A DNA stretch of 64,000 nt from Phycisphaerae bacterium RAS1 (GCA_007859745.1 SMLU01000002.1:52942-116941), one strand, 5' to 3'. Positions 2,959 through 62,672 are shown, numbered from the stretch's first letter. The notes: generated by a model not told the origin, from the sequence alone. Numbers and translations are program-made.

Positions 2959-3539
2959 AACGCGCGACCGGCCTTTTATCGCTCATGCTGACGGCCACGG
3001 CACTTCTGACCGGCGGCTGCGGCGACAACCAGGCCGCGGAAGCCGCCAAGACGGCCGCCGCCGCCGCGAAACTGGATCTGAAAATCGCCCAGGCCACGCC
3101 TGAAGAGGCGGTGCGAACGCTCTTCGAGCTGGTTCGAGTCGACCTGGCCGCCGCCGCCAGGCAGGACCGGCCGGCCCAGAAAGTGATCTCCGGCACGCTG
3201 GAGCGCCTGGCGTCCCGCGAGGACATTCACCGTCGCGTGCGGAACATCGCGCGGCTCAGCGGCAAGCCGGCGGACGAGTTCTTTGACAAGGTCATCGGGC
3301 GCTGGAGCGCGGTGCTCGCGCCGTACTACGAAAAGGCCGACCTGGCCGCCATGCGCGTGCTTTCCACGCGAGACGACGGCGGGTATGTCCGCATTCGAAT
3401 CGCCTCGGCTGACCCGCAGGGCCGACCGGCCGGGCTGATGGTGGAGTGCAGCAACGACAGGGGGGCCTGGAAAATCGCCGGCGTCTATTTTGACTCGCCC
3501 GGCGCAGCGTCACAGCCGGCGAGTTCGTCGGCGCCGTGA
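2955..3539 (+). CDS. Lipoprotein, hypothetical
   Basis: GTG at 2955 overlaps the metG stop by 4 nt. Signal peptide plus lipobox LLTGGC. C-terminal part of ORF 1749-3539. Confidence 0.6.
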   Translation: MKRATGLLSLMLTATALLTGGCGDNQAAEAAKTAAAAAKLDLKIAQATPEEAVRTLFELVRVDLAAAARQDRPAQKVISGTLERLASREDIHRRVRNIARLSGKPADEFFDKVIGRWSAVLAPYYEKADLAAMRVLSTRDDGGYVRIRIASADPQGRPAGLMVECSNDRGAWKIAGVYFDSPGAASQPASSSAP

Positions 3540-8364: not shown

Positions 8365-8430
8365 CGGGTGGAACGGGCATCTTGCCCGTTCGTGAGACGG
8401 CGCGAACGGGCGAGACGCCCGTCCCACCCC
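8365..8430. repeat. Family-B palindromic repeat (GGGTGGGACGGGCGTCTCGCCCGTCC ... GGACGGGCGAGACGCCCGTCCCACC)
   Basis: Inverted arms, each arm itself a hairpin. Intergenic, between the ACT gene and ftsK. Confidence 0.8.
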
Positions 8431-17151: not shown

Positions 17152-17592
17152 ATGGACAGCAATTGGAAGCAGAGTTTCGTCGAGAAGCTGAATCGGGCCC
17201 AGTCGCAGTGGACCAGCAAGTTCACCGAGGTCATGGAATCGCAGGTGTCCGAGACGTTCGAGGACATCCGCCGCTTCGTGCAGGACAACGGCTTTGCGGC
17301 CAGCACTCCGCTGCGCGAGGACTCGCGCCGCTCGTTCAAGTTCGAGCTGGCTGAGAACGCCTACCTGCTGATGATCTTCCGCTCGGTCGGCGTGGGCGAG
17401 TTCGAGGTGCGCAGCGAGAGCTTCGTGCCCGGCCGCGACGCCAAGCTGGCCAAGATGCGCTGCCGGCTGGTGGACGTGGACGAAGCCTGGGCCCGCGACC
17501 AGTTCCAGGCGGCTCTGGACGCGTTCGTCGCGCACCTCGCGGACGAAACCGCGGGCGCGCCGGAGGTAAACGAGGAGCTCGTGCTGGTCTAG
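17152..17592 (+). CDS. Hypothetical protein (146 aa)
   Basis: Clean ORF with coding-like composition. No motif recognised. Confidence 0.5.
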   Translation: MDSNWKQSFVEKLNRAQSQWTSKFTEVMESQVSETFEDIRRFVQDNGFAASTPLREDSRRSFKFELAENAYLLMIFRSVGVGEFEVRSESFVPGRDAKLAKMRCRLVDVDEAWARDQFQAALDAFVAHLADETAGAPEVNEELVLV

Positions 17593-17617
17593 CGAGGAAG
17601 TGGGAAGTGAGAGCGGG

Positions 17618-17732
17618 CTTTCCGAGCCGCGACCGTGAGGGAGCGGAGACTTGAAGAACCGCTTGCTTACGCGCGCGGCTCGGATCTTGCCGCCGCGCGC
17701 GGCTCTGATCTTGCCGCCGCGCGCGGCTCCGA
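17618..17732. repeat. Family-D palindromic repeat (TCCGAGCCGCGACCGTGAGGGAGCGG ... CCGCTTGCTTACGCGCGCGGCTCGGA)
   Basis: Inverted arms with a variable spacer and tandem GATCTTGCCGCCGCGCGCGGCTC sub-repeats. Confidence 0.75.
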
Positions 17733-19027: not shown

Positions 19028-19105
19028 GGTGTGAACTCCTGCGGGTTTTCCGCATGCTAGCGCGCGGCATGCGCAGCCGCAAGCAAACCGGACGCCGCGG
19101 CGGTC

Positions 19106-19206
19106 TTTCCGAACCCGCCGCGCCAAGCGGCGGGTTGACGATCGCGCGCGAGCGGCGCCTCGCAGGCCGGGGAGGTCGACTCGCCGCCTGGCGAGGCGGG
19201 TTCGGA
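19106..19206. repeat. Family-A palindromic repeat (TTCCGAACCCGCCGCGCCAAGCGGCGGGTTGACG ... inverted arm ... GGGTTCGGA)
   Basis: Full two-arm copy, intergenic. Confidence 0.85.
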
Positions 19207-24327: not shown

Positions 24328-24448
24328 GGCGTACTCCGAGTGTCACAAAAGGAATAGTATCGCCCACCGCGCGCGATTGCATCGCGCGGGGAGTGATGGT
24401 GATGCGCCGGGTGTGACCGGAGATTGTCGCGACTCAGCGGGCGAGTCT

Positions 24449-24549
24449 GTCCGAACCCGCCGCGCCAAGCGGCGGGTTGACGACCGTAGGTCTTTTGGCG
24501 CCACACAGGCCGGGGACGTCACCCCGCCGCTTGGCGCGGCGGGTTCGGA
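24449..24549. repeat. Family-A palindromic repeat
   Basis: Full two-arm copy between the STK start and the ispB end. Confidence 0.85.
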
Positions 24550-26872: not shown

Positions 26873-27228
26873 TCCACCGGTCCGCCGCGGTGCTAGCGCC
26901 TGACCGCCGGCGGTTTCTGCGGCGCCGGCCGCGCGGGCGTGCTTCGGGCAGGCCATCCTAAGTGCCGATCGCGACGGCGGCAACGGATGCGCACGCAATC
27001 GGGCGACGGGCGGTTTTCGAGACGATTTCAAGTCGCAAACTCCGCGCCGCGTCGAACGCCAGGTAGGGCGCCGGCTGGGGCGCCGTCCCCGCGCAGCCCA
27101 TGCCTGAGGAGGCACGTCGGCCCCGACGCTGGTGACGTTTCCGGGATATACGCAGCGGGGGACGATTCAGATTTGGCATTAACCTGCCGTGCCGGAGTTT
27201 TATTCCAGAGAGAGCCGTGAACATCTTG

Positions 27229-27300
27229 GTGAGACGGGCGTCTGGCGCATCTTGCCCGTTCCTGAAGACCGCAGGGACGGGCGAGACGCCCGTCCCACCC
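27229..27300. repeat. Family-B palindromic repeat
   Basis: Intergenic. Confidence 0.8.
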
Positions 27301-27345: not shown

Positions 27346-28095
27346 CTATGCCTGCTGCAATCCCAGGTCGCCCTCGATGCGTTCGATCCGGCGGCGCAAG
27401 GCCGCGATGGCCTGGTGCATCTCAGCCATCTCCGCCTGCAGGTTTTCCATTTCGGCGCTCAGGCTCGACCGCTCAGCGGGTCCGTCGGCCGGGTGCGGCG
27501 CGGGCGCATGCGGCGTCGGGGCGACAACACTCGATGTCGCTGCCGCAGGCGCGCTGTGCGATGCCGCCGGCGGGGCAGAAATCGCCGGCTGCTCGCCCTC
27601 CGGGTACAGCAGGTGCGTGTAGCGCGTGGCCGATTGGCCGGGCTGCCGCGGCAGCGGCGCGACCAGCGGCGGATCGGTGCGCGCGAGGCCGTCGAGAATC
27701 CCGTTGATCAACTCCGGCCCGTCAATCGCAATCATGCGCTCGCAGCGGGTGCGCAGCTCGGCCGGCGTCTGCGGCCCGCGCAGCAGCAGCTCGCACAGCA
27801 CGGCCCGTTGCGGCTTCTCCCAGCCGAGGCGCTCCTTCAATTCATGTTTGTAGCGATCGACGCGGCTGCCCATTCCCGGCAGCAGGCGCGAGACGAGTCC
27901 GCCGGCCCGCAACACTTCGAGCGTGTTCCAGACGGATTCCTCGTCCAGCTCCATGAGCGGGTCGCGGTTGTTCTTCTGGTTGCAGGCCACGACGATCGCG
28001 TTCAGCGTCATCGGATAGTACTGCGGCTGGGCGAGGGCCTTTTCGACCAGCACGCCCAGCACGCGGCGTTCGGTGGGATTGAACGTGAGAGCCAT
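27346..28095 (-). CDS. DUF480 (YceH-like) family protein
   Basis: N-terminal LTFNPTERRVLGVLVEKALAQPQYYPMTLNAIV and C-terminal coiled coil. Confidence 0.7.
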   Translation of the reverse strand: MALTFNPTERRVLGVLVEKALAQPQYYPMTLNAIVVACNQKNNRDPLMELDEESVWNTLEVLRAGGLVSRLLPGMGSRVDRYKHELKERLGWEKPQRAVLCELLLRGPQTPAELRTRCERMIAIDGPELINGILDGLARTDPPLVAPLPRQPGQSATRYTHLLYPEGEQPAISAPPAASHSAPAAATSSVVAPTPHAPAPHPADGPAERSSLSAEMENLQAEMAEMHQAIAALRRRIERIEGDLGLQQA

Positions 28096-28140
28096 CGAGC
28101 GGAGATGATACCGCGTTCGGCACGCCGTGCATCAGGATAG

Positions 28141-28266
28141 GAACCGCTGGCTTACGCGCGCGGCTCGGATCACGCGGCTCGGATCTCGCGGGTGGGGCCA
28201 ACATCCGAGCCGCGGCCGTGAGGGAGCGGTCCGGGAGAAGACCGCTTGCTTACGCGCGCGGCTCGG
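28141..28266. repeat. Family-D palindromic repeat
   Basis: Overlaps the 3' end of larA; it supplies the last codons ...RKSEPRA. Confidence 0.75.
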
Positions 28267-29566
28267 ACTTGCGTGCGGCGACGCAGACGTTTCCCGCGTC
28301 ATGGACGCGGACCGCGGACGCGCGCGGCGAATCGCCCGCCGCGGCCAGCGCGGCCTCGATGTCTGGACATAACGTCATTCCGCACAGTGCGGCGGCGTCC
28401 TGCGGAACATGGCGGCTGACGAGAAAAACCCGCACGCCGCGGCCATGCGCGTCGGTCAGATGCCGCAGTTTCACCGCCTTATGATCGCCGAGCCGATAAC
28501 CGTTGGCCGCGACGGTTTGACGTGCGGCGGCGTAGGTGGACGCGGATCGCAGCAGCGCCAGGAAACCGTCGGGCCCGACGCCTTCGCGGCACTCGGCGTC
28601 GAGAATAATGGCGCCGCCATCTCGAACGGCGAGATGGTTGTTTTTCAGCGCCTTGTCGGCCTGATACAGGTTTCGGCTCAGCGGCGGCGCGACGCACAAG
28701 TGCAGGATATCCGCCGGATTCGGAATCTCGTGCGAGAACGTGCGCCGCGCGACGGGCGCGAGCCGATGGAGCGCTTCAAGCGGATCCCCGACGGCACAGG
28801 CGACAAGTGCATCTTGAGCGATGACCTCGTTGATCGCGACCAGCGATTTGCCGGCCGACCGAAGGCTTTCGACGACATGTCGAACGCCGTCATAAACCGG
28901 GTTGCCGTCGAGCCGGAAGAGATCGGAGGCCGGATCGAGCGCGCCGGCGTGGTTCTTCTCGATATCGGCGCGGGCCATGACGCCGATGGTGGCGGTCTTG
29001 TGTGCCCCGGTCAGCCCGGCGAAGTAATGCGGCTCGACGCTGCCGATTGCCAGCAGGCAGCGCGCCTCCGCGACCAGCGGGTGCAGCCGGACGCCGCCAA
29101 ACTCGCGCAGATCGACGGCGTCGCAGTCGTGCCAGTCGATTTGTGCGATCGGCAAGCCGCAGTCGGCGAAGGTGGCGTGCTCGAACGCGGCCCGCTCGGG
29201 CGCGGGGAACTTGTGCGTACCGGTTGCGACAATCGCACGGCAGGGGGGCAGCGCTTGCGCCGCACGTCGGGCGGCTTCGGACAGCGCGAGTAGCGCGGCG
29301 CGGGTCAGCGTGGCGCGGTGAGGATCGTTGACCAGCAGGACCAGCGCGTGTGCGGTGTGTGCGGCGGTCTCAAGAAGCTCCCGCAGTCCGGCGTGGTGCG
29401 AGATTTCGGCGCCCAGCACGTCCGCCGCCAGTCCGGCGTTGCGCGGCGTGATCGGCCCGAATTCCTGCCAGGCGGCCATTGCCGATTCTCCGCGCATCAG
29501 AGCATGTGTTCGCGCGAATCCGGCGATATTGAAGTGCTGTTGGCGGAGATTGTCGAGGCGCGGCAT
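28250..29566 (-). CDS. LarA-like protein (DUF2088 / nickel-pincer lactate racemase family)
   Basis: About 438 aa; resembles LarA-type nickel-pincer racemases (DUF2088) and has conserved His residues, but the assignment is low-confidence. No larB, larC or larE nearby. Confidence 0.55.
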   Translation of the reverse strand: MPRLDNLRQQHFNIAGFARTHALMRGESAMAAWQEFGPITPRNAGLAADVLGAEISHHAGLRELLETAAHTAHALVLLVNDPHRATLTRAALLALSEAARRAAQALPPCRAIVATGTHKFPAPERAAFEHATFADCGLPIAQIDWHDCDAVDLREFGGVRLHPLVAEARCLLAIGSVEPHYFAGLTGAHKTATIGVMARADIEKNHAGALDPASDLFRLDGNPVYDGVRHVVESLRSAGKSLVAINEVIAQDALVACAVGDPLEALHRLAPVARRTFSHEIPNPADILHLCVAPPLSRNLYQADKALKNNHLAVRDGGAIILDAECREGVGPDGFLALLRSASTYAAARQTVAANGYRLGDHKAVKLRHLTDAHGRGVRVFLVSRHVPQDAAALCGMTLCPDIEAALAAAGDSPRASAVRVHDAGNVCVAARKSEPRA

Positions 29567-30375: not shown

Positions 30376-30929
30376 TCTTTCATCTCCTATGCACTTCCGG
30401 ACCGGCCACGTTTCAGCGTCCCGCCGGTCGGCGGCAGTACGAGAAGAGCATTCAAAATGAATGCGCTCCAGTCAAACCCGAGTGGCGCGGGTTCGGCCGG
30501 TTCCCATAAGAGGCGTGACCTGGAAAACTGGCTATCCGGGTAAACTGTGCTATACTATTGGGAATGCTGCAAACGCCGAATGTCGAGCCGCCACCAGCGG
30601 CTCGGCAACGGGGAACCCAACGCGGCGCACGGCTTCACGGCGTGTGTCGCAGGGGCTAATCCGGCCGAAGCCGGACGCTTACTCAGCGAAGCGAGCCCGT
30701 CAGCTAACCCCGCAGGCAAACGCTGGAGTCTCGCTTTGCGCGTTTTCATCAAACGACGATAGCCGCCTGCGCCTCGCGAGCCGGGCTTCCGTTGCATCTT
30801 CGCGCGAGCGCCGCGCCGACTTTTTCATTGGTCGGCCGACGTCGCACGAAATGGCGTAGAAGTTTCGGTGATCGAGGTCTGCGGCCGCATTCGGCGTTTG
30901 CTGGGATCGAGGCATGCGGGAGAAGAGCC

Positions 30930-33071
30930 ATGTTACTCGCAATGGTCAGTGCAACGATGGTGGTGGTCGGCGTGCTTGCCGCGCTGACGGTGTTGGCGAT
31001 GCTCACCGGCCTGGCCGGCATTCGCTACATTCCCAACAAGCGCGTCGGAATCGTCGAGAAACTCTGGAGCCGGACCGGCTCGCTGGAGAGCGGGCTGATC
31101 GCGCTTCACGGCGAGGCTGGATTCCAGCCGGAGGTGCTGCGCGGCGGTCTGCATTTCCTGACGCCGTTCCAGTTTCGCGTGCACGTCGTCCCGCTGGTGA
31201 CGATCGGGCAGGGACACATCGGGTACGTCTTCGCGCGTGACGGCGCGCCGCTGCCGGCGTCGCAATCGCTGGCCGGCAACCAGAAGGCGCAGAATTTCGA
31301 AGACGTGCGCGCGTTTCTCGGCGCCGGCGGCCAGCGCGGCCCGCAGCGCAAGCTGCTGCGCGAGGGCACGTACGCGATCAACCTGGCGCAGTTCGCGGTC
31401 ATCACGGACGACCAGAATTACTTCCTTCCGCTGGAGCGCGACGACAAGGCGGTGTTCGAGAACATGGCGGAGGAAATCGCGCGGCGCGAGGGATTCAAGC
31501 CCATCGTCATCAAGGGCAACGACGACCTGCTCGGCATCATCACCGTGCATGACGGCCCGTCGCTGCCGCCGGGAGAGATCATCGCGCCGGTGGTCGGACA
31601 CGACCCGGAGCAGCCGGACACGTTCCACAATAACTTCCAGGAAGCCGAGCGGTTCCTGGCCGCCGGCGGCTGCCGCGGGCGGCAGCTCCAGGTGCTGGTG
31701 GACGGCACGTTCTACCTGAACCGGCTGTTCGCCACGGTCGAGATGGTCGCCAAGACGATCATTGAAGTCGGCAGCGTCGGCGTGGTCGTGTCCTACACCG
31801 GCGAGCACGGCGCCGACCTGTCCGGCGTCGAATACAAGCACGGCGAGCTGGTCCGTCCCAGCCAGCGCGGCGTCTGGAGCGAGCCGTTGCTGCCGGGCAA
31901 GTACGCCTTCAATACGTACGCGGGCAAGATCATCGCCGTTCCGACGACGAACTTCATATTGAAGTGGATCCGCAGCGAGAGCGGGATGCACAAGTATGAC
32001 GAGAACCTGAAAGAGGTCTCGCTCATCACGAAAGACGCGTTCGAGCCGTCGCTGCCGCTGAGCGTGGTCGTGCACATTGACTACCGCAAGGCGCCGCTCG
32101 TGATCCAGCGTTTCGGCGACGTGAAGCGGCTGGTGGAGCAGACGCTGGACCCGATGGTGTCCGCCTATTTCAAAAACATCGGACAGACGCGCACGCTGAT
32201 CCAGCTCCTGCAGGATCGCGCCATGATTCAGAAGCTGGCCGGCGAGGAGATGCAGGAAAAATTCGCGCACTACAACCTCGAGCTGGAGGAAGTGCTGATC
32301 GGCACGCCTACGGCGTCCGCCGGCGATGAGCGGATCGAGAATATCCTGACGCAGCTCCGCGCCCGGCAGATCGCCGAGGAACAGGTCGAGACCTACGCCC
32401 GCCAGGAGAAGGCCGCCGTCAAGGAGCGCGAGCTGCGCGAGGCCGAATCGCGCGCCCGCCAGCAGGCGCACCTGACCGAGAGCGAGCTGGCGATCCGCGT
32501 GCAGGAGAACCAGGGCAAGGCCGAGTATCAGCGCGCCCTGCAGCAGGCGGCGCAGATGCGGGCCATCGCCGAAGCCGAGGCCGCCCGCACGCGGGCGCTG
32601 GCCGACGCCGAGGCGGCGCGGATCCGCGTCACCGGCCAAGCCGAGGCGGACAAGGCCGCCCGCATCGGAATCGCACAAGCCATCGCGACCGAGGAGCAGG
32701 TCCGCGCTTACGGCGGACCGCAGTACCAACTCACGCGGCAGGTGATGGAGCGCTTCGCCGAGGCCGTGCAGCAGTCCGGCGTCGACCTGGTGCCGAAGAT
32801 CGTGATCGGTGGTTCGCCTGCTCCGGCCGGCGACGGCGGGTTGCAGTCTTCGGTAACCGGCGCGAACGTGATGGAAGCGCTGCTCACGATGCTGTTGTCG
32901 GACCGGCTCAGCAACGGGTTGCTTAAGAGCGAGCATGTTGCCCATGCCGGCAACGGCGGCGCTGCTGAGCAGCCGGCGGCGCGCGAGGTTCGCGCCGGAG
33001 CGGACCGGCTGCGCAGCGAGGTCCGCCGCGGGCTGAGCGAAGATCAGCTTGTTCCGGTGAAGACTGCGTAA
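30930..33071 (+). CDS. SPFH/Band-7 (flotillin-like) domain membrane protein with a long coiled-coil region
   Basis: N-terminal TM. SPFH core. Extended EA-rich repeats (flotillin-type). 713 aa. Confidence 0.7.
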   Translation: MLLAMVSATMVVVGVLAALTVLAMLTGLAGIRYIPNKRVGIVEKLWSRTGSLESGLIALHGEAGFQPEVLRGGLHFLTPFQFRVHVVPLVTIGQGHIGYVFARDGAPLPASQSLAGNQKAQNFEDVRAFLGAGGQRGPQRKLLREGTYAINLAQFAVITDDQNYFLPLERDDKAVFENMAEEIARREGFKPIVIKGNDDLLGIITVHDGPSLPPGEIIAPVVGHDPEQPDTFHNNFQEAERFLAAGGCRGRQLQVLVDGTFYLNRLFATVEMVAKTIIEVGSVGVVVSYTGEHGADLSGVEYKHGELVRPSQRGVWSEPLLPGKYAFNTYAGKIIAVPTTNFILKWIRSESGMHKYDENLKEVSLITKDAFEPSLPLSVVVHIDYRKAPLVIQRFGDVKRLVEQTLDPMVSAYFKNIGQTRTLIQLLQDRAMIQKLAGEEMQEKFAHYNLELEEVLIGTPTASAGDERIENILTQLRARQIAEEQVETYARQEKAAVKERELREAESRARQQAHLTESELAIRVQENQGKAEYQRALQQAAQMRAIAEAEAARTRALADAEAARIRVTGQAEADKAARIGIAQAIATEEQVRAYGGPQYQLTRQVMERFAEAVQQSGVDLVPKIVIGGSPAPAGDGGLQSSVTGANVMEALLTMLLSDRLSNGLLKSEHVAHAGNGGAAEQPAAREVRAGADRLRSEVRRGLSEDQLVPVKTA

Positions 33072-33215: not shown

Positions 33216-33289
33216 ATGCGCGGCGAACGCCAATGGCGAAAGGCCAAAGTCGGTGGCTAATACTCCGACGCTATGTGCGTCAGCCCTGG

Positions 33290-33500
33290 AAGGGCGAAAG
33301 AATACAGCCCCGGGCGAAAGCGCGGGGACGTCATTGAAGCAAGACCGCGCAGCCCCGGAGGGGCGAAAGAGAGGGGCAGCGTGTGCGGCACCGTGCCGCA
33401 TCGCAAGCAGAGCTTTCGCCCCTCCGGGGCTTGTGGTCTCTTGCGCGGAGCACCCCGGGCTGACGCCCGGGGCTTTATTCTGCCGCCCCTACGGGGCTGA
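33290..33500. repeat. Family-E nested palindromes rich in the motif GGGCGAAAG
   Basis: CCGGAGGGGCGAAAGAGAGGGGCAGCGTGTGCGGCACCGTGCCGCATCGCAAGCAGAGCTTTCGCCCCTCCGG is a perfect 15-bp inverted repeat enclosing an inner hairpin. Confidence 0.6.
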
Positions 33501-35299: not shown

Positions 35300-35397
35300 G
35301 GGGCTTCATCATGGGGGCCACGATGCACACGGACAAGCGGAGCGCCGCTTGTCGTGGGTGTCGCCGAAGTTCTCGCCAGACGCCGCCGGCGGGGCCG

Positions 35398-35503
35398 TTT
35401 TTCCGAACCCGCCGCGCCAAGCGGCGGGTTGACGATGGTGGGCGAGCGGCGCGTCACAGCCCGGGGACGTCACCCCGCCGCTCGGCGCGGCGGGTTCGGA
35501 CAG
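35398..35503. repeat. Family-A palindromic repeat
   Basis: Full copy, intergenic. Confidence 0.85.
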
Positions 35504-43950: not shown

Positions 43951-44056
43951 CGCGGGCGGCGCCCGGACCGCGACGGCGCTCCGTTCCCCACCGGCAATCC
44001 CGTCTCGCTACAATGTCGCGCCGAATCCTTACAAAAGAATATTCCTGGAGGCTTGA

Positions 44057-46174
44057 ATGACCTGCTCGTCCTGTGCCGCACTTTCGCTCTTCCTGGCCGC
44101 CTGTTTTCTGCCGGTCGCGTCATTTGCCCAATCCGCCGCCAAGCCGATCAACGTGCGCGACCTGCACGCCTTGGAGCGCATCAGCCAGATTCAGGTCTCG
44201 CCCGACGGCCAGCGCGTCTGCTTCGTCCTGCGAACCACCGACTTCGACGCCAACCGTGGGCGAACTAATCTGTGGATGTGCAACATCGACGGCAGCGTCC
44301 TGCGGCGGCTGACCACGCACCCGGAGGGCGGCGCAAGCAACCCGCGCTGGGCGGCCGACGGTGGCGCCATCTACTTCATTTCCAGCCGGGACGACAGCTC
44401 ACAGATTTGGCGGATTGCGGCGGACGGCGGCGAGGCGGAGCAGGTCACCAGGCTCCCGCTCGACGTCGAGAGCTTCACGCTCTCGCGCAACGGTAAGCTC
44501 ATGGCCCTCAACATGGCCGTCTTTCCCGACGCCTCACCGGCCGACACGAAAAAGCGGCTCGACGAGAAAAAGCAACAGAAGGCGACCGGCCAGCTTTATG
44601 ACAAGCTCTTCGTGCGGCACTGGGACGCATGGAAAGACGGCCGGCGCTCGCACATCTTCGTCCTGCCCGTGGGTGGGATGGGCGTCTCGCCCGTCCCTGC
44701 CGACAGCGTGAACGGGCGAGACGCCCGTTCCACCCTCAGCCCGGAGGCGGTCGACTTGATGAAGGGCATGGACGCCGACGCGCCGTCACGACCCTTCGGC
44801 GATGCAGACGAGTACACGTTTACGCCGGACGGAAAGGCCGTGGTTTTTGCCTGCCGCAACGTCGGCCGCGAAGAGGCCTGGTCCACGCGTTTTGATCTGC
44901 ATGTCGCGCCGGTTGATGGCGCCGCGCCGCCGAAGGTCATCACGCCGGGCAACAAGGCCACCATCACCCAGCCGGTCTTCTCGCCGGATGGCAGGACGCT
45001 CGCGTATCTGGCCATGACGCGGCCGGGATACGAGGCCGACCGCATGCGGATCGTGCTGCGAAGCTGGCCCGACGGCGAGCCCAAGTTGCTCACGGAAAAG
45101 TGGGACCGCTCGCCGCAGAAGATCGTCTGGTCGGGTGACGGCAAGACGATTTACGCGTTCGCCGACAACCTTGGCCAGCGTAGCATCTTCGCGGTTAGCG
45201 CCGCGGACGGCGCGGCGAAGGCGATGGTTGAGCAGGGCCACGCAACCGAATTGGGCGTCGCCGGGGATCGCGTCGTCTACGGGCTGAATTCGTTGAAAAG
45301 CCCCGTGCAAATCCACACGGTGGCCGCAGCCGGCGGCAGTCCGACGCAGATCACAAAGATCAACGGGGAAAAGCTCGCCGAGCTGAAGCTCGGTGAGCCG
45401 GAGCAGTTCGATTTCGTCGGCTGGAACGACGAGAAGGTCTACGGCTACATCGTCAAGCCGGTCGATTTTGACGCCGCGAAGAAGTATCCGATCGCGTTCC
45501 TGATTCACGGCGGCCCGCAGGGCTCGTTCGGCAACGACTGGCACTATCGCTGGAACCCGCAGCTTTTCGCGGCGGCGGGCTATGCAGCGGTGATGGTCGA
45601 TTTCCACGGCTCCACCGGCTACGGACAGGCGTTCACGGACGCGATCACCGGCCACTGGGGTGATCGGCCGCTCGAAGACTTGCAGAAAGGCCTGGCGGCG
45701 GCCCTGGCGAAATACCCGTGGATGAACGGCGAGAAGGTGGCGGCGCTGGGCGCCTCCTACGGCGGCTACATGATCAACTGGATCGCCGGCAACTGGCCCG
45801 ACCGCTTTCGCTGCCTGGTCTGCCACGACGGCAATCTCGACGAGCAGTTCGCCTACTTCGACACGGAGGAGTTGTGGTTCCCCGAGTGGGAGCACGGCGG
45901 GACGCCCTGGGAAAAACCGGAGAACTTTGCCAAGGCCAACCCGATCGACTTCGTGAAGAACTGGAAGACGCCGATGCTGGTGATCCACGGCGGGAAGGAC
46001 TACCGCGTGGTTTACACGCACGGCATCGCGACGTTCACGGCGCTCCAGCGGCGCGGGATTCCGAGCAAGTTCCTGTTCTTCCCGGATGAGAATCACTGGG
46101 TTTTGAAGCCGGCGAATGGGATCTTGTGGTATGACACGGTGCTGGGGTGGATGGATGAGTGGTGTAAGAAGTAG
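44057..46174 (+). CDS. S9-family serine peptidase (prolyl oligopeptidase/acylaminoacyl-peptidase type), secreted; carries an in-frame family-B repeat
   Basis: Signal peptide. Beta-propeller N-domain. Catalytic GASYGGY, with Asp and His in the C-terminal alpha/beta-hydrolase domain. Confidence 0.85.
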   Translation: MTCSSCAALSLFLAACFLPVASFAQSAAKPINVRDLHALERISQIQVSPDGQRVCFVLRTTDFDANRGRTNLWMCNIDGSVLRRLTTHPEGGASNPRWAADGGAIYFISSRDDSSQIWRIAADGGEAEQVTRLPLDVESFTLSRNGKLMALNMAVFPDASPADTKKRLDEKKQQKATGQLYDKLFVRHWDAWKDGRRSHIFVLPVGGMGVSPVPADSVNGRDARSTLSPEAVDLMKGMDADAPSRPFGDADEYTFTPDGKAVVFACRNVGREEAWSTRFDLHVAPVDGAAPPKVITPGNKATITQPVFSPDGRTLAYLAMTRPGYEADRMRIVLRSWPDGEPKLLTEKWDRSPQKIVWSGDGKTIYAFADNLGQRSIFAVSAADGAAKAMVEQGHATELGVAGDRVVYGLNSLKSPVQIHTVAAAGGSPTQITKINGEKLAELKLGEPEQFDFVGWNDEKVYGYIVKPVDFDAAKKYPIAFLIHGGPQGSFGNDWHYRWNPQLFAAAGYAAVMVDFHGSTGYGQAFTDAITGHWGDRPLEDLQKGLAAALAKYPWMNGEKVAALGASYGGYMINWIAGNWPDRFRCLVCHDGNLDEQFAYFDTEELWFPEWEHGGTPWEKPENFAKANPIDFVKNWKTPMLVIHGGKDYRVVYTHGIATFTALQRRGIPSKFLFFPDENHWVLKPANGILWYDTVLGWMDEWCKK
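44683..44749. repeat. Family-B palindromic repeat inserted in frame in the S9 peptidase gene
   Basis: GTGGGTGGGATGGGCGTCTCGCCCGTCC...GAACGGGCGAGACGCCCGTTCCACCC translates PVGGMGVSPVPADSVNGRDARSTL without breaking the frame. Confidence 0.8.
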
Positions 46175-46224
46175 GGCGCGCTGGATGAGCGCCGGACGCG
46201 CACCGAGATTGCTGTGGCGCGTCT

Positions 46225-46312
46225 GATCCGAGCCGCGACCGCGAGGGAGCGGTTCTTCGTCGATCGGAGCGCCGTGCTTTCAGAACCGCGCCCTTACGGT
46301 CGCGGTTCGGAT
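46225..46312. repeat. Family-D palindromic repeat
   Basis: ATCCGAGCCGCGACCGCGAGGGAGCGG...CCGCGCCCTTACGGTCGCGGTTCGGAT. Confidence 0.75.
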
Positions 46313-46336
46313 CAGCGTGAAGAGGGGCCCGCCGCG

Positions 46337-46927
46337 TCAGGCCTGCTCCACGCGGATCCACTTCTCGATCTGCGGCGGCTCATATTTCCTCATCCGGTCG
46401 AGCAGCACCCCCTCGTCCTGCTCGATCTGAATCATCGCCCGATGTTCGCGTCGCACGAGCCGCTCGGCGACGGCGTGATCCAGGAACTCAATCAGTTTGT
46501 CGTAATAGCCAGCGGCATTGAGTATGCCGCAGGGCTTGGAATGAATGCCGAGCTGAGCCCAGGTGATGATCTCGAAGATCTCCTCGAACGTTCCCAGTCC
46601 GCCGGGCAGGGCGATGAAACCGTCGGCCAGCTCCTCCATCATGGCCTTGCGCGTGTGCATGCTATCCACGACGTGCAGCTCGGTCAGGCTCTCGTGCGCG
46701 ACCTCTTTCACGGCCAGCCCGTGCGGGATGACGCCGATCACTTCGCCGCCGTGAGCGAGCACCTCGTCGGCCAGCACGCCCATCAAACCGACGTTTCCGC
46801 CGCCATAGACCAGCCGGATGCGCTCGGCCGCCAGGCGCCGGCCCAGGCGGCGCGCGGCATCGGCGTAGGCGGGGTTCGCCCCGTTGCTTGAGCCGCAGAA
46901 AACGCAGAGCCTTCGAATCTCGCGCAT
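46337..46927 (-). CDS. LOG-family protein (cytokinin riboside 5'-monophosphate phosphoribohydrolase-like)
   Basis: VFCGSS, GGGxxGLM and PGGxGTxxE motifs. Confidence 0.85.
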   Translation of the reverse strand: MREIRRLCVFCGSSNGANPAYADAARRLGRRLAAERIRLVYGGGNVGLMGVLADEVLAHGGEVIGVIPHGLAVKEVAHESLTELHVVDSMHTRKAMMEELADGFIALPGGLGTFEEIFEIITWAQLGIHSKPCGILNAAGYYDKLIEFLDHAVAERLVRREHRAMIQIEQDEGVLLDRMRKYEPPQIEKWIRVEQA

Positions 46928-48328: not shown

Positions 48329-48366
48329 CGCTAACCGGGTGTGCCTGTTTCCGGGCGGGCGGTCTT

Positions 48367-48488
48367 CTTTCCGAACCCGCCGCGCCAAGCGGCGGGGTGA
48401 GGTGCGCGCTGTGCTCGGCGTCAAGGTACGACGCGCCGCTGCGAACGCGCCCGGACGTCACCCCGCCGCTTGGCGCGGCGGGTTCGGA
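48367..48488. repeat. Family-A palindromic repeat
   Basis: Full copy with a longer spacer. Confidence 0.85.
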
Positions 48489-49408: not shown

Positions 49409-49452
49409 CCGGAGTTGAGACCGCGCGTGCAAGGAAGCTGTCCCAAAACTCC

Positions 49453-49517
49453 TTCCGAGCCGCGACCGTGAGGGAGCGGAGCCTGAAGAACCGCTTGCTT
49501 ACGCGCGCGGCTCGGAT
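49453..49517. repeat. Family-D palindromic repeat
   Basis: TTCCGAGCCGCGACCGTGAGGGAGCGG..CCGCTTGCTTACGCGCGCGGCTCGGA. Confidence 0.75.
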
Positions 49518-49664: not shown

Positions 49665-49955
49665 GTGAAGTGGATTGCATCTATTGTTGCCGGCGTTTCG
49701 ATCATCGGTCTGGCCGCCGCGGCTGTCGCGGATGAACCGGCCGCCGCGAAACCGCGGGCGTCTGAAGCGTCGGCCAAGCCTGAAGCCGAGCAACGGCTCG
49801 AGCGGATCAAGAAACTGGCCGGCGCGTGGGAGTCCGGCGACGAAGACGGCGCCGGTATGGCCGACACGCAGGCGTACTATCGCATCGTCTCCGGCGGCAC
49901 GGCCGTGGCGGAGTTTCTCATGCGCCCGGGTGGGACGGGCGTCTCGCCCGTCTAA
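49665..49955 (+). CDS. Small secreted hypothetical protein (96 aa); its C-terminus runs into a family-B repeat
   Basis: Signal peptide MKWIASIVAGVSIIGLAAAAVA. The last residues GGTGVSPV are repeat-derived. Confidence 0.4.
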   Translation: MKWIASIVAGVSIIGLAAAAVADEPAAAKPRASEASAKPEAEQRLERIKKLAGAWESGDEDGAGMADTQAYYRIVSGGTAVAEFLMRPGGTGVSPV

Positions 49956-49990
49956 TTGGGCCGGGACGGGCGAGACGCCCGTCCCACCCA
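49927..49990. repeat. Family-B palindromic repeat
   Basis: GGGTGGGACGGGCGTCTCGCCCGTC..GGGACGGGCGAGACGCCCGTCCCACCC. Confidence 0.85.
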
Positions 49991-50056: not shown

Positions 50057-50755
50057 GTGCCCGACAAAGCCTGCATCATCACCGGCGCCAGCCGCGGCAT
50101 CGGGCTGGCCACGGCGCTTCGCTTGGCCCGCGGCGGTTATCACGTGACGCTCGCGGCTCGGAATCCCGTCGAGCTCGAGGCCGCGGCCCGGCAGGTTTCA
50201 GCGGTGGGGGTCGGCGTGGAGGCCGTTCCGGTTGACGTCGCAGAGCCGCCCGCCGCCGCAGAGCTGACGGCGATCTCACTCCGGCGTTTCGGCCGGATCG
50301 ACGTGCTCATTAACAACGCCGGCTACGGTTTGCTCGCCCCCATCGACCAACTCGCCGCTGCGGAGTTTCAGAAGTTGCTGGCGGTCAACGTGGTGTCGGT
50401 GTTTCACCTGACGCAGGCCGTGTGGCCGGTCATGCGCGACCAGCGCGGGGGCGTAATCGTGAATGTCTCGTCGATCGCCGCGTTCGATCCATTTCCCGGA
50501 TTCGCGGTCTACGGCGCGTGCAAGGCATGGGTGAACACGTTTACGCGCGCGATCGCCGAAGAAGGCAAGAAGCTCGGCATCCGCGTCTTCGCCGTCGCGC
50601 CGGGCGCCGTGGAGACGCAGATGCTTCGCTCGGCGTTCCCTTCGTTTCCGGCTGAGCAAACGCTCGACCCGGATCATGTGGCGGCGACGATCGAAGCGCT
50701 GGTCGACGAGCGCCTGGCGCACTGCAGCGGGCAAACGGTGATCGTGAAGCGATAG
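50057..50755 (+). CDS. SDR-family oxidoreductase
   Basis: TGASRGIG, NNAG and YxxxK (YGACKAW) motifs. GTG start. Confidence 0.85.
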   Translation: MPDKACIITGASRGIGLATALRLARGGYHVTLAARNPVELEAAARQVSAVGVGVEAVPVDVAEPPAAAELTAISLRRFGRIDVLINNAGYGLLAPIDQLAAAEFQKLLAVNVVSVFHLTQAVWPVMRDQRGGVIVNVSSIAAFDPFPGFAVYGACKAWVNTFTRAIAEEGKKLGIRVFAVAPGAVETQMLRSAFPSFPAEQTLDPDHVAATIEALVDERLAHCSGQTVIVKR

Positions 50756-50798: not shown

Positions 50799-50933
50799 GG
50801 GTGGGACGGGCGTCTCGCCCGTCCCCGCGGTCTCAGGAACGGGTAAGATTCCGGTTCACCCGAACGGTGCTCACATGTCCTCTTGCCCGTCGCGCGGGAC
50901 GGGCGAGACGCCCGTCCCACCCATTGAGATGCA
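50799..50933. repeat. Family-B palindromic repeat, extended double copy
   Basis: Two outer arms plus internal half-arms spanning 135 bp. Confidence 0.8.
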
Positions 50934-52092: not shown

Positions 52093-52161
52093 AGGGAAAG
52101 ACCCTCACAGATTCGCGAAACGGCGTTGCCTATCATACCGACGCGCGCTACGGCACAGGCC

Positions 52162-52225
52162 TTTCAGAGCCGCGACCGTGAGAGAGCGGTTCTTCGAGCC
52201 TTTCCGAGCCGCGACCGTGAGAGAG
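52162..52225. repeat. Family-D half-arms, two tandem copies, interrupted by an IS insertion
   Basis: CAGAGCCGCGACCGTGAGAGAGCGGTTCTTCGAGCCTTTCCGAGCCGCGACCGTGAGAGAG. Confidence 0.75.
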
Positions 52226-53700
52226 TGAGAATAAATCCCCCTTGCCGGGGATGGTACATTATTCGACATGGACACGACGATGCTGATTGCCGGAATGGAT
52301 GCCGTGATGAACGACCCAGTATCGGAATCGACGGGGCGGCGTGCGTTGGCGGAGCCGCCGCGGCTTCGGCGGCCGAATCGCGAGCAGTCGTTGCTGCTGC
52401 CGTGCTGTCTGGAGGATCTGCTGCCGGCGGATCACGCGGCGCGGGCGGTTTGGTCGGTCGTGGAGCGGCTCGATCTTTCGGCGTTCAGCGCCCCGCTCAA
52501 GGCGCGCGGCGACGAGCCGGGCCGGCCGGCGACGGATCCGCAGTTGCTGACGGCGTTGTGGCTGTACGCGACGATCGAGGGGATTGGCAGTGGGCGCGAG
52601 ATCGAGCGACGCTGCGGCTGCCAGGACGCTTTTCGCTGGCTGTGCGGCGGCGTGCCGGTGAACTATCACACGTTGAATGACTTCCGCGTCGGTCACGGGG
52701 CGGCGCTGGACGAACTGTTTTCGCAGGTGTTGGCGGTGCTGATGCACAAGCGGATCGTGAGCGTGCGTCGGATTGCGCAGGACGGAACCAAGGTGCGGGC
52801 CGACGCCGGGCGGCACACCTTCCGCCGCGAGGCGACGCTGCAGCGTCAACTGACGGAAGCCCGCGCCCATGTGGCGGCGGTCAAGGCCCAGTCGGACAAC
52901 CCTGCCGCGGATGCGCGACGGCGTGCCGCGCAGGAGCGTGCGGCCCGGGAGCGGGTCGAGCGAATCGAAGCGGCGTTGGCCGAGTTGCCGAAGATTGGCG
53001 CAGACCAGCAGCAGTCCAAGCGGCCGGACGTGCGTGCCAAAGAGCCGCGGGCCTCGACGATCGACCCGCAAGCGCGCGTCATGAAGATGCCCGACGGCGG
53101 CTACCGTCCGGCGTATAACGTACAACTGGCAACCGACGTGGAGAGCCGCGCGATTGTGGGGGTGGACGTCACCCAGGCCCGCAGCGACCACCAGCAAGCA
53201 GCGCCGCTGCGCGCCCAGGTGGAGCGGCGCAGCGGCGCGAAGGTGGTAGAGCACCTGCTCGACGGCGGCTACGTGCAGTTGGCCGAGATCGAGCGCGCCG
53301 AAGCGGCGGGCACGCGCATCTATGCGCCGCCGCAGAAGACCGGGAACGACACCGCGGGCTTTGCGCCCAAACGCTCTGACGGTCCGGGCGTGGCGGCCTG
53401 GCGCGTGCGCATGGGAACGCCGGCGGGCCAGACGATCTATAAGCAGCGAGCCTCGACCGCCGAGCCGGTCAACGCCGACTTGAAACGGTATCGCGGACTG
53501 GCGCAATGCGTCGTGCGCGGGCTGGCCAAAGTACGCTGCCAGGCCCTTTGGGCCGCCCTCGCCTACAACGTGATGCACTTCACCGCGCAGCTCGTCACCT
53601 GACCAACGGTGAGCGAATGAACCCGCCGGTGCAGCCGAAGTAAACAAGCGAATCACGAGCCGCAGACCATGCGACAAGGAAACCGACGCCGGCCAAAGGA
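52226..53700 (+). mobile_element. IS5/IS1182-like insertion sequence (boundaries approximate) inserted into a family-D repeat cluster
   Basis: Transposase ORF with candidate terminal inverted repeats TGAGAATAAAT... and ...AGTTCTCAGTCT. Flanked on both sides by CGTGAG(A/G)GAG from repeat D. Confidence 0.6.
52268..53602 (+). CDS. IS5/IS1182-family DDE transposase
   Basis: N-terminal InsH-like domain RPNREQSLLLPCCLEDLLPADHAARAV. The C-terminal DDE-region identification is weaker. Confidence 0.75.
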   Translation: MDTTMLIAGMDAVMNDPVSESTGRRALAEPPRLRRPNREQSLLLPCCLEDLLPADHAARAVWSVVERLDLSAFSAPLKARGDEPGRPATDPQLLTALWLYATIEGIGSGREIERRCGCQDAFRWLCGGVPVNYHTLNDFRVGHGAALDELFSQVLAVLMHKRIVSVRRIAQDGTKVRADAGRHTFRREATLQRQLTEARAHVAAVKAQSDNPAADARRRAAQERAARERVERIEAALAELPKIGADQQQSKRPDVRAKEPRASTIDPQARVMKMPDGGYRPAYNVQLATDVESRAIVGVDVTQARSDHQQAAPLRAQVERRSGAKVVEHLLDGGYVQLAEIERAEAAGTRIYAPPQKTGNDTAGFAPKRSDGPGVAAWRVRMGTPAGQTIYKQRASTAEPVNADLKRYRGLAQCVVRGLAKVRCQALWAALAYNVMHFTAQLVT

Positions 53701-53707
53701 AAAGTTC

Positions 53708-53893
53708 TCAGTCTCGTGAGGGAGCGGTTCTTCGAGCCTTTCCGAGCCGCGACCGTGAGGGAGCGGTTCTTCGAGCCTTTCCGAGCCGCGACCGTAAGGG
53801 AGCGGTTCCTGGCGTCTCCGCGGTTCCTGGCGTCTCCGCTGCCGTACGGTGATTGCCGGATCCGCTCCCTCACGGTTGCGGCTCGGAAGGGTC
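53708..53893. repeat. Family-D cluster: three tandem left half-arms, then spacer and right arm
   Basis: GTGAGGGAGCGGTTCTTCGAGCCTTTCCGAGCCGCGACC occurs three times, followed by CCGCTCCCTCACGGTTGCGGCTCGGA. Confidence 0.8.
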
Positions 53894-53895
53894 TC

Positions 53896-54270
53896 TCAAC
53901 CATATCCCAGCTCGTCCAGCCCTTCCTCGTCCATGCCGAAGTGGTGTCCCACCTCGTGCAGGACGGTGATGCGGATTTCATCGATCAGCTCGTCATACGA
54001 CTCGCACATGTCGCACAGGTTGTGGCGGAAGATGAAGATGCGATCCGGCATGGAAGCGGCCCGCAGGTCGGACATCTTCTCGTCCAGCGGCACGCCGACG
54101 TAAAGCCCCAGCAGGTCGTCGGGCACATCATGCTCGGCGCAGAACTGCGGCTCCGGGCGGTCGCACACTTCGATCATGACGTTCTCAAGGTGCGGCTTGA
54201 ACTCGGGCGGGATCTCCGCAAGCGCCTCCTCGACGGCCCGGTCGAACTCGGCGCGGGACACGTGTATCAT
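53896..54270 (-). CDS. Zincin-like metallopeptidase (DUF1025/MtfA-related; HExxH)
   Basis: HEVGHHFG motif. About 124 aa. Start MIHVSRAEF at 54270. Confidence 0.7.
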   Translation of the reverse strand: MIHVSRAEFDRAVEEALAEIPPEFKPHLENVMIEVCDRPEPQFCAEHDVPDDLLGLYVGVPLDEKMSDLRAASMPDRIFIFRHNLCDMCESYDELIDEIRITVLHEVGHHFGMDEEGLDELGYG

Positions 54271-54323
54271 CTGGCCGGTCGCCTTTACAGCAGGTCGGTC
54301 TTGGCGGACCGATCTCTTTTTTC

Positions 54324-54389
54324 GGGTGGTACGGGCATCCTGCCGGTTCCTGACCGCGCACGGACGGGCGAGACGCCCGTCCCACCCCA
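54324..54389. repeat. Family-B palindromic repeat
   Basis: GGTGGTACGGGCATCCTGCCGGTTCC...GGACGGGCGAGACGCCCGTCCCACC. Confidence 0.8.
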
Positions 54390-54411
54390 ATCGATTCTCG
54401 GAGTATATGCC

Positions 54412-55425
54412 TTGATTCTTCAACCGTCACCGAAACTCTGTCGCGGCGGGGCACTGCTGCTGCTAGGCTCGCTGCTCGGCGGCGGGTGCGCGCCGATGTC
54501 GTTTCTGGTCACGCCCGTGCCCGCGCCGCGCGCGTTGCAGGAACAGGTGGTCCGCCGCGAGAGCCTGTTCGCCTCGCAGCGGATCGCCGTCATCGAGATC
54601 GACGGGATGATCCAGAACGGCCGCGAGCAGTCGCTGGCCGGGGCCACGGGCGAGAATCCGGTGGCGCTGTTCAAGGAGAAGCTCGACAAGGCCGGCGGCG
54701 ACTCGCGCGTCAGGGCTGTCGTTCTGCGCATCAACTCACCCGGCGGCACCGTGACCGCCAGCGACATCATGCACGGCGAGGTGGTCGCGTTTCGCAAGCG
54801 GACCGGCAAGCCGGTGATCGCGTCGATGCTGGATGTGGCCGCGTCGGGCGGGTACTACGTCGCATGCGCCTGCGACCGCATCTACGCCCATCCCACCACG
54901 GTGACCGGCAGCATCGGCGTCATCGCGCTTCTGCCCGATTTCTCGGGGACCATGCAGAAGCTGGGGATCGCCGTGAACGCGATCAAGAGCGGCGCGATGA
55001 AGGACTCCGGGTCGCCCTTTCGTGAGATGACCGAAGCCGACCGGGCCGTGTTTCAGAAGATGATCAATGACATGTATGAGCGCTTCCTGGCCGTGGTGCA
55101 TGCCGGCCGGCCGGGAATCGCGGCCGACGAGCTGCGGAAAATCGCGGACGGACGCATCTACATGGCCGACGACGCGCGGCGTCTGGGGCTGATCGATACG
55201 GTCGGCGGGCTGGAGGACGCGATCACCGCGGCGCGAGAGGCCGCCGGCATCGGCGCGACGCCGATTGTCATCGTGCAGTACGCGCCGACGCATGTCTACC
55301 GGCCGAACATCTACGCTCATTCGCCGGACGGCCCGACGCAGGTGAACCTCGTGCATCTCGAGCTGCCGGCCCTGCTGAAGGGCGGGGAGCCACAATTCTT
55401 GTATCTCTGGTCGCCCGGCTGGTGA
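54412..55425 (+). CDS. sppA: Signal peptide peptidase SppA (36K type), lipoprotein
   Basis: ClpP/crotonase-fold S49 motifs: INSPGG, ASGGYY, catalytic S and K. Lipobox LLGGGC. TTG start at 54412. Confidence 0.8.
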   Translation: MILQPSPKLCRGGALLLLGSLLGGGCAPMSFLVTPVPAPRALQEQVVRRESLFASQRIAVIEIDGMIQNGREQSLAGATGENPVALFKEKLDKAGGDSRVRAVVLRINSPGGTVTASDIMHGEVVAFRKRTGKPVIASMLDVAASGGYYVACACDRIYAHPTTVTGSIGVIALLPDFSGTMQKLGIAVNAIKSGAMKDSGSPFREMTEADRAVFQKMINDMYERFLAVVHAGRPGIAADELRKIADGRIYMADDARRLGLIDTVGGLEDAITAAREAAGIGATPIVIVQYAPTHVYRPNIYAHSPDGPTQVNLVHLELPALLKGGEPQFLYLWSPGW

Positions 55426-59365: not shown

Positions 59366-59381
59366 TTGCTATGCATTATCC

Positions 59382-59457
59382 GATCCGAGCCGCGACCGTA
59401 AGGGAGTGGTATTTCGACGGTCGATTGGCCACCGCTCCCTTACGGTTGCGGCTCAGA
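59382..59457. repeat. Family-D palindromic repeat
   Basis: ATCCGAGCCGCGACCGTAAGGGAGTGG...CCACCGCTCCCTTACGGTTGCGGCTCAGA. Confidence 0.8.
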
Positions 59458-62424: not shown

Positions 62425-62565
62425 GTGTACCTCCAAGTCGGCGCCGCCATACGCAGCGAACCACCGCCGAATGCTCGCGGACCGCAGGTCATTCGTCAAC
62501 GCGGTGGCGCCTTCGGGTTGTGGGTGAGCGTTGCCACGGTTCTTAGCAGATGTCGCGGGGCGGGC

Positions 62566-62672
62566 CGTTTTTCCGAACCCGCCGCGCCAAGCGGCGGGTT
62601 GACGTCCTCGACCTATGCGGCGCGGCTCGCCTACGATCGTCAACCCGCCGCTTGGCGCGGCGGGTTCAGACA
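62566..62672. repeat. Family-A palindromic repeat
   Basis: Full two-arm copy. Confidence 0.85.

Follow-up and report, generated by a model that had tools for sequence, protein, structure and literature searches.

A family-B repeat within an S9 peptidase gene

The window analysed here is a 64,000-nt stretch of the Phycisphaerae bacterium RAS1 genome (GCA_007859745.1 SMLU01000002.1:52942-116941; GC content 66.7%), in which an intact gene for an S9 family serine peptidase (44057-46174, plus strand) contains a copy of a dispersed palindromic repeat that we refer to as family B. The 705-amino acid (aa) product is composed of an N-terminal signal-peptide-like segment, a β-propeller and an α/β-hydrolase domain, matches the Pfam families Peptidase_S9 (PF00326, 213 bits) and PD40, and is a 100% match to 'Prolyl tripeptidyl peptidase precursor [Phycisphaerae bacterium RAS1]'. 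Its triad, S567 (the GxSxGG serine), D648 and H680, lies entirely in invariant alignment columns.

The repeat copy is a doublet of REPs (repetitive extragenic palindromic sequences), i.e. a REPIN (REP doublet forming hairpin), and occupies positions 44672-44734, comprising 63 nt in phase 0 that encode residues 206-226 (GGMGVSPVPADSVNGRDARST). The left REP (44672-44695, plus strand) has a GTGG head, a stem of GGGATGGGCG/CGCCCGTCCC and a TCT loop, and encodes GGMGVSPV, while the inverted right REP (44711-44734, minus strand), with a loop reading AGA on the plus strand, encodes NGRDARST. Between them lies a 15-nt spacer (44696-44710) which forms the loop of the long hairpin, encodes PADSV and differs in sequence in each copy of the family. 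We set the element boundaries as GGTGG...CCACC, giving 63 nt or 21 codons, equal to the gap in the nearest orthologue. The open reading frame (ORF) is uninterrupted across the repeat (...VLPV-GGMGVSPVPADSVNGRDARST-LSPEAVDLM...), with 0 stops and 0 frameshifts. An earlier note, made from the window sequence alone, had described such an in-frame repeat without stop or frameshift in this gene, and both this description and the peptide it quoted are correct. The element that it reported is likewise real, but had been placed at 44683-44749, about 12 nt too far 3′, and given 22 rather than 21 codons.

Relative to the family consensus GGTGGGACGGGCGTCTCGCCCGTC, the two arms have 1 and 2 mismatches. 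The 63-mer folds into a near-perfect 23-bp hairpin, with a predicted energy of -52.7 kcal/mol as RNA (z -9.05) and -28.2 kcal/mol as single-stranded DNA (z -7.26). This copy is open in five of the six frames and the remaining window copies in 4-5 of 6, the REP arms being GC-rich and stop-free in every frame. No target-site duplication is present at the insert flanks CCCGTG and CTCAGC, and neither an intrinsic terminator nor a promoter was detected at the insert in the interval 44000-46400, where the 3′ side of the hairpin also lacks a terminator-like T-run. Rfam searches at gathering thresholds gave no match on any family-B copy, and a protein-database search with the translated element returned 15 candidates with one weak match. 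A tryptic peptide ending ...GVSPVPADSVNGR would span the insert.

Alignment to an orthologue without the segment, a check proposed in the earlier note, was possible with the nearest orthologue (P0002, locus L001; 684 aa, 87% aa identity). This protein lacks exactly 21 residues at the insertion point, and the gap is the sole indel of the full pairwise alignment. At the codon level, the window gene carries an additional 63 nt between CCC GTG and CTC AGC CCG GAG, and no family-B arm occurs in the 22 kb surrounding the insert-free orthologue. The repeat origin of the segment is unambiguous because it combines DNA identity to the repeat family with absence from the closest orthologue; judged by sequence, a dispersed palindromic repeat has truly inserted in frame into an intact gene. 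Divergence between the two genes amounts to 0.78 at synonymous (dS) and 0.068 at nonsynonymous sites (dN). The resulting dN/dS of 0.087, together with the conserved catalytic residues and the full-length ORF, argues that the peptidase gene is under strong purifying selection and is not a pseudogene. This contradicts pseudogene status, which the earlier note had named as a possible objection and which we ruled out on the same three grounds.

The insert probably occupies a β-turn of the propeller domain, where it is modelled as disordered. In an AlphaFold model built on an 18-sequence alignment (mean predicted local distance difference test (pLDDT) 73.9, predicted template modelling score 0.77), residues 209-227 are unstructured with pLDDT below 50, forming the only long such stretch in the propeller region, and are placed between a β-strand at 197-204 and a short strand at ~232. 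The model thus agrees with the suggestion in the earlier note that the repeat adds a peptide segment in a propeller loop. Among solved S9 peptidases the model compares best with 8wt1 (template modelling score 0.77-0.84), in which the turn equivalent to the insertion site according to sequence alignment has ~4 residues.

To place the insert among related proteins, we surveyed this loop, delimited by GRRSH[LIV]F and DLMxGMDAD, in 120 orthologues. It is 10 aa long in ~100 of them, and ~9 have insertions of +14 to +25 aa that are unrelated to the window insert. Unrelated segments in orthologues had also been anticipated as a counter-argument; some do exist in the loop, yet the origin of the window segment is settled by its DNA identity to the repeat. 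Insert DNA was recovered for seven of these loci. In this comparison the window insert (z -6.3) and the insert shared by P0009 and P0014 (z -7.3 and -5.0) form strong hairpins. We rejected the idea that all orthologue loop inserts are palindrome-derived, as those of P0025, P0004, P0079, P0041 and P0039 have z > -1.4. Among the recovered loci, the P0009/P0014 lineage is the only one besides the window copy with a palindromic loop insert. Its element (~70 nt; L003 ~6876-6946 and L127 ~7286-7352) encodes ...MPSEPPAQAGGSTPTLAHGART... in the same propeller loop, is a palindrome distinct from family B (arms TGCCGTCCGAGCCCC / GGGGCTCGGACGGCA), and persists in both of these orthologues, whose identity to each other is 87%. 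The propeller turn is therefore a permissive site, used at least twice independently by palindromic elements. The inner hairpin of the P0009/P0014 element is similar to another repeat of the window, family A (CCGAACCCGCCGCGCCAAGCGGCGGGTT).

Family B and an associated transposase clade

A family-B unit is present at six loci of the window, five of which are extragenic (outside Pfam-supported genes). The 15-nt core GGGCGTCTCGCCCGT, matched with up to two mismatches, occurs 12 times in the 64 kb versus 0.78 expected, and 0 of 100 shuffles reached 12. Extragenic REPINs lie just 3′ of an FtsK gene (8367-8428; gene 8442-11102, minus strand), 3′ of a DUF480 gene (27227-27300, left arm degenerate; gene 27346-28095, minus strand), upstream of a short-chain dehydrogenase gene (49929-49988, both arms perfect; gene 50057-50755, plus strand) and, most likely, between divergent genes for Zincin_1 (minus strand) and an S49 peptidase (plus strand), the gene starts being inferred (54325-54386). 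A composite of two units lies between convergent genes (50799-50922). Window copies other than the one in the peptidase gene measure 60, 62, 62 and 72 nt.

Each family-B REP is ~24 nt long, with a head that reads GTGG rather than GTAG, a GC-rich stem of 8-10 bp and a 3-nt TCT/AGA loop, so that an arm is a small hairpin, GGGACGGGCG-TCT-CGCCCGTCCC, with GGT in front. Two REPs inverted about a variable spacer make up the unit, which is the REPIN architecture. Across 57 family-B dimers, lengths range from 55 to 94 nt and spacers from 7 to 46 nt (mode 14-17 nt). The earlier note had proposed that the repeats are selected for frame-neutral length, an idea that fails because the dimers fall evenly into the three length classes modulo 3 (19/18/20). 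Family B is not tuned to codon multiples, and filtering acts only on the individual insertions that survive.

Searching species-representative genomes for exact copies of the 21-mer GGGCGAGACGCCCGTCCCACC yielded at least 120 stretches, and the matches listed are mostly from Planctomycetota (Phycisphaerae). In these genomes some REPs have a more variable partner, others stand singly and others form head-to-tail arrays. Among the scan loci listed, the hairpin lies in frame inside ten Pfam-confirmed long ORFs that are rich in G+C at third codon positions, namely those for an acetyl-CoA synthetase, PrpD, PurL (with four tandem GRDARPT units), ValRS, an E2 acyltransferase, a Lyase_1 enzyme, a PALP enzyme, MetH, DUF1365 and DUF58.

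Several further observations concern the distribution of the repeat. Among the matches listed, GGGCGAGACGCCCGTCCCACC also occurs in metagenome-assembled genomes (MAGs) labelled Acidobacteriota, Thermodesulfobacteriota, Verrucomicrobiota, Chloroflexota and WS1 (L005-L124), a taxonomic spread which is unusually broad for a REP and for which horizontal transfer and bin contamination are both candidates. Head-to-tail arrays of single REPs have periods of 21, 33 or 38 nt (L089:5604-8000, minus strand; L010; L071; L040; L005), and the PurL gene, with four in-frame GRDARPTGLSD units, is an example of such an array. In Thermodesulfobacteriota/Syntrophaceae MAGs, the REP lies within a conserved multi-copy context, tatagcggttgccaataataatttccgtttctc...ctcaacactgac-REP-ggtctgcgaacctccca (L016, L017, L049, L084, L085, L103, L105, L108, L114 and L122), which may represent one terminus of a bigger mobile element, or a noncoding RNA.

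At two of the scan loci, L071 and L111, a Y1/HUH transposase gene lies between family-B-type hairpins, with TCT-loop hairpins upstream and inverted AGA-loop hairpins downstream (three and three at L071, two and one at L111). The bracketed transposase scores 33 bits with Pfam Y1_Tnp (PF01797; cutoff 23), and its homologues are proteins of 150-270 aa annotated as 'transposase' or 'REP element-mobilizing transposase RayT', i.e. REP-associated tyrosine transposases (RAYTs). Their alignment contains the motifs HVHLL/HVHIL and Y..NP, with H55, H57 and Y120 invariant. Homologous RAYTs at L131, L133, L134 and L136-L141 have flanking stems which covary while the geometry is kept (GGCACAGGCG/CGCCTGTGCC, CACGGGCG/CGCCCGTG and GACAGGCG/CGCCTGTC), and the RAYT at L135 has only short and unrelated flanking hairpins. 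In every RAYT case examined, the upstream REP lies ~10 codons ahead of a conserved R-x-LPHW motif. Because this hairpin-RAYT layout is the REPtron arrangement, the sequence evidence identifies family B as a REP/REPIN family linked to a RAYT clade, the REPtrons having been seen in genomes other than RAS1. A protein search found no RAS1 protein among the RAYT homologue matches.

The closest described counterpart is the GTAG-19 family of Opitutus terrae, whose intragenic inserts were listed by Di Nocera, De Gregorio & Rocco (2013, BMC Genomics 14:522, PMC3733652, Additional file 3). In that study O. terrae and R. conorii were the richest genomes, GTRG/GTGG head variants were accepted, and a GTGG head was noted in the O. 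terrae GTAG-20 family (PMC3733652). Like family B, GTAG-19 consists of short GC-rich stem-loops with a GT(A/G)G-type head in inverted dimers, and occurs inside ORFs of known proteins in the same frame with near-identical peptides (GTGVSPV/GTGVPPV ... GRDARAT). Published peptides include GTGVSPV, GRDARAT, GTGVPPVMADQPHGRDARAT and GTGVPPVDSGSASDDHGRDARAT (PMC3733652), the dimers encoding 20-23 aa as in GTGVPPVMADQPHGRDARAT. The stem differs slightly, the window peptides GRDARPT/GTGVSPV deriving from GGGACGGGCG... whereas those of O. terrae are mostly GRDARAT/GTGVPPV, and the hosts belong to different phyla (Verrucomicrobiota versus Planctomycetota, here Phycisphaerae). We place family B in the same superfamily as the O. 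terrae GTAG-19 REPs. Since the peptides of Additional file 3 essentially match the window peptide, the phenomenon, the superfamily and the reading frame have already been described; the host gene, the loop and the phylum-level lineage are new.

Intragenic copies are unevenly distributed between frames. The frame giving GGTGVSPV/GRDARPT is used in 9 of 11 validated intragenic events when the window and scan loci are combined, and by our own count of the published O. terrae list the GTGVSPV/GRDAR-type frame accounts for ~26 arms, WHGRLAR/TGGTPVP for 21 and the Arg-rich VARASRP for only 5. This bias is consistent with purging of the most disruptive peptides, in samples that are small and non-independent.

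The REPIN-RAYT systems defined by Bertels & Rainey (2011, PMC3116915), for which the REPtron concept is cited in PMC3733652, resemble family B in that two inverted REPs with a spacer form a long hairpin, their copies occur in excess and lie mostly outside genes, a single Y1/HUH transposase has inverted REPs on its two sides, and REP sequence covaries with RAYT lineage. Pseudomonas REPINs are almost exclusively extragenic, with 14 of 1,067 16-mers overlapping genes (PMC3116915). REPs are usually lineage-specific, whereas the exact family-B 21-mer is found in MAGs of several phyla.

Rickettsia palindromic elements (RPEs) are reported by Ogata et al. (2000) to insert in frame in protein-coding genes. 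As with family B, palindromic repeats lie in frame in functional genes and the added peptides are tolerated, and the comparison drawn in the earlier note is a fair one, the more so as RPE-4 and RPE-6 are themselves classed as CGTC REPs (PMC3733652). The likeness is in behaviour only, without any sequence relationship: RPE-1 is 100-150 nt long and RPE-4/6 have a CGTC tag and no known transposase, whereas family B has a GTGG head and is RAYT-linked. With this head and a planctomycete host, family B belongs to none of RPE-1 to RPE-10 and does not carry the CGTC tag. Correia elements of Neisseria, by comparison, measure ~100-155 bp, end in 26-bp terminal inverted repeats, duplicate a TA target, contain an integration host factor (IHF) site and act mainly on transcription. 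Both are abundant small palindromic repeats, but the Correia-specific features are absent from family B. The likeness to Correia elements claimed in the earlier note does not stand, as terminal inverted repeats typical of a miniature inverted-repeat transposable element (MITE) and a target-site duplication are missing and the size is wrong.

Origin and fate of the insertion

Based on these results, we propose that the segment very probably represents a recent, tolerated in-frame REPIN insertion at a permissive turn in the propeller of a functional S9 peptidase. As non-autonomous elements, REPINs are presumed to depend on a RAYT (a Y1/HUH transposase) that copies them as single-stranded hairpins, a route which we extend to RAS1. 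One copy would have entered the ancestral S9 gene, between its codons 205 and 206, once the lineage had separated from the nearest sequenced relative. It may have survived because its length happened to be 63 nt, because its arms are stop-free in any frame and the copy is open in five of six, and because it landed in a propeller β-turn that tolerates insertions in many orthologues. The outcome would be a 21-residue, Gly/Ser/Pro/Asp/Arg-rich and probably disordered loop on an otherwise intact enzyme, and a very stable hairpin in the mRNA. The insertion is most likely a tolerated, neutral or slightly deleterious selfish element rather than an adaptation.

Four points weigh against this scenario. 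The structural model is only moderate and a unique insert receives low pLDDT regardless, so that 'disordered' is to be read weakly. The dN/dS is an average over both lineages since their split, with which a very recent loss of function stays compatible. A hairpin of -52.7 kcal/mol within the ORF could affect mRNA stability or translation. Finally, tblastn found no RAYT in the 64-kb window, and for this reason mobilisation by a cognate RAYT in RAS1 is a step that we infer.

An adaptive role, in which the loop has been recruited for substrate gating, oligomerisation or interaction at the propeller surface and is kept by selection, is very unlikely in our view. It would account for the recurrent use of this propeller loop as an insertion site, for the maintenance of a distinct palindromic insert in the two 87%-identical orthologues, and for the preference of intragenic REPs for a Gly/Ser/Pro/Asp-rich frame (both the 9 of 11 events and the O. 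terrae counts). However, arms only 1-2 mismatches from the consensus indicate that the insert is young, and it is undiverged at the protein level; the segment is modelled without structure; and purging of harmful basic peptides explains the frame preference equally well. In the other orthologues, inserts at this loop have unrelated sequences and lengths, suggesting tolerance and not a shared function.

Alternatively, the gene could be an incipient pseudogene, recently inactivated by the insertion through either the protein or the mRNA hairpin, which we consider very unlikely. The 23-bp hairpin could draw RNase III or stall ribosomes, and the consequences of a recent insertion would be invisible to dN/dS. 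Against this, the ORF is full length without stop or frameshift, the triad and all 200+ invariant columns are kept, the insert is the sole indel relative to the orthologue, and no terminator-like T-run follows the hairpin. Moreover, the same hairpin has in-frame copies in numerous housekeeping genes from other genomes as well as in O. terrae genes, and is thus clearly compatible with function.

A Correia-type MITE, i.e. a transposase-deleted insertion sequence (IS) with terminal inverted repeats, is hardly credible: the 24-nt arms superficially resemble terminal inverted repeats round a short core, but target-site duplication and the terminal inverted repeats of a parent IS are lacking, the spacer is variable and only 7-46 nt, each arm is a self-complementary hairpin that also occurs singly and in head-to-tail arrays, and the arms flank Y1/HUH RAYT genes rather than DDE transposases, and we rejected this identity.

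Read as a tolerated REPIN insertion, the locus offers a clean and datable case in which a functional enzyme has gained a surface loop from a selfish hairpin element. It extends the Opitutus pattern to Phycisphaerae, although the importance of the S9 finding itself is modest. As the same turn has been independently taken by a different palindrome in another lineage, protein tolerance decides where insertions survive.

RAYTs within housekeeping genes of other genomes, and side observations in the window

RAYTs of this lineage are themselves found inside genes. At the DNA level, the valS gene of at least eight genomes or metagenome contigs contains an in-frame RAYT at one and the same position, bracketed by family-B-type REP hairpins (L071:1509-3884, plus strand; L111:3741-7526, minus strand; L134, L135, L137, L138, L139 and L141). 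Each of these valS loci is one stop-free ORF with the order ValRS-N, REP, RAYT, inverted REP, ValRS-C, the RAYT match in the six metagenome loci lying at ~3001-3420 (372-791 in L138), and the hairpin stems at the valS-RAYT loci covary between lineages. The two best-characterised ValRS::RAYT fusions share 56% identity over their full length versus 57% in the RAYT part alone.

In an exhaustive search, with a stand-alone RAYT as query, 53 of the best 150 RAYT representatives (proteins P0193-P0342) are at least 400 aa long with the RAYT internal. Hosts include Ham1 (11), ValRS (9), PurH (7) and AlaRS (4), and also PriA, RecG, DNA methylases and DnaK (for example P0221 and P0306, AlaRS; P0219, DnaK; P0224 and P0259, PriA; P0310, RecG; P0290, Type ISP restriction-modification (R-M)), and host domains lie on both sides of the RAYT in the sample checked. 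Outside ValRS, these cases are gene calls from metagenomic contigs, seen at the protein level only. Together the sequences suggest that a clade of RAYTs habitually resides within housekeeping genes. We found no report of a RAYT in valS in the searchable literature; Quentin et al. (2018) discarded long fusion proteins.

A broader and more doubtful possibility is that family B is part of a REP-RAYT lineage which habitually lives in ORFs. Its stop-free arms would encode mostly harmless flexible peptides, and its RAYT would sit in frame between REP-encoded linkers in essential or housekeeping genes (ValRS, AlaRS, DnaK, PriA, RecG, PurH, RdgB/Ham1 and R-M methylases), an intein-like 'safe harbour' strategy for a domesticated transposase of which the S9 insertion would be a small by-product. 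If true, proteomes of Planctomycetota, Verrucomicrobiota and Acidobacteriota would systematically receive loop insertions from this lineage. If the embedding is real and functional, it would bear on the long-term vertical persistence of RAYTs and REPINs.

The window is unusually rich in repeats. Besides family B, it contains at least two dispersed palindromic families, A (core CCGAACCCGCCGCGCCAAGCGGCGGGTT) and C (core CCGAGCCGCGACCGTGAGGGAGCGG), with a first set of loci at 3707-3760, 19097-19206, 24439-24549, 35391-35500, 48359-48488 and 62561-62670 and a second at 17588-17685, 28137-28268, 46209-46312, 49421-49517, 52159-52234, 53697-53841 and 59366-59423. Family C forms tandem 39-nt units at 53697-53841.

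The only Rfam matches in the window are a c-di-AMP riboswitch of the ydaO/yuaA type (30564-30733, plus strand, 51 bits), upstream of an ORF at 30792-33071, and two matches to Acido-Lenti-1 (33282-33327, minus strand, 39.8 bits; 33453-33498, plus strand, 55.3 bits), which are inverted and ~125 nt apart. A further inverted pair, cagccccggaggggcgaaag / ctttcgcccctccggggctt, lies between the latter, and the region looks like another REP-like cluster rather than a small RNA gene. Lastly, positions 54400-54560 encode a lipoprotein-like signal sequence (LLLLGSLLGGGC) in a frame that differs from that of the downstream S49 peptidase domain ORF (53716-55425), which could reflect a wrongly assigned start, a frameshift or an additional small ORF.

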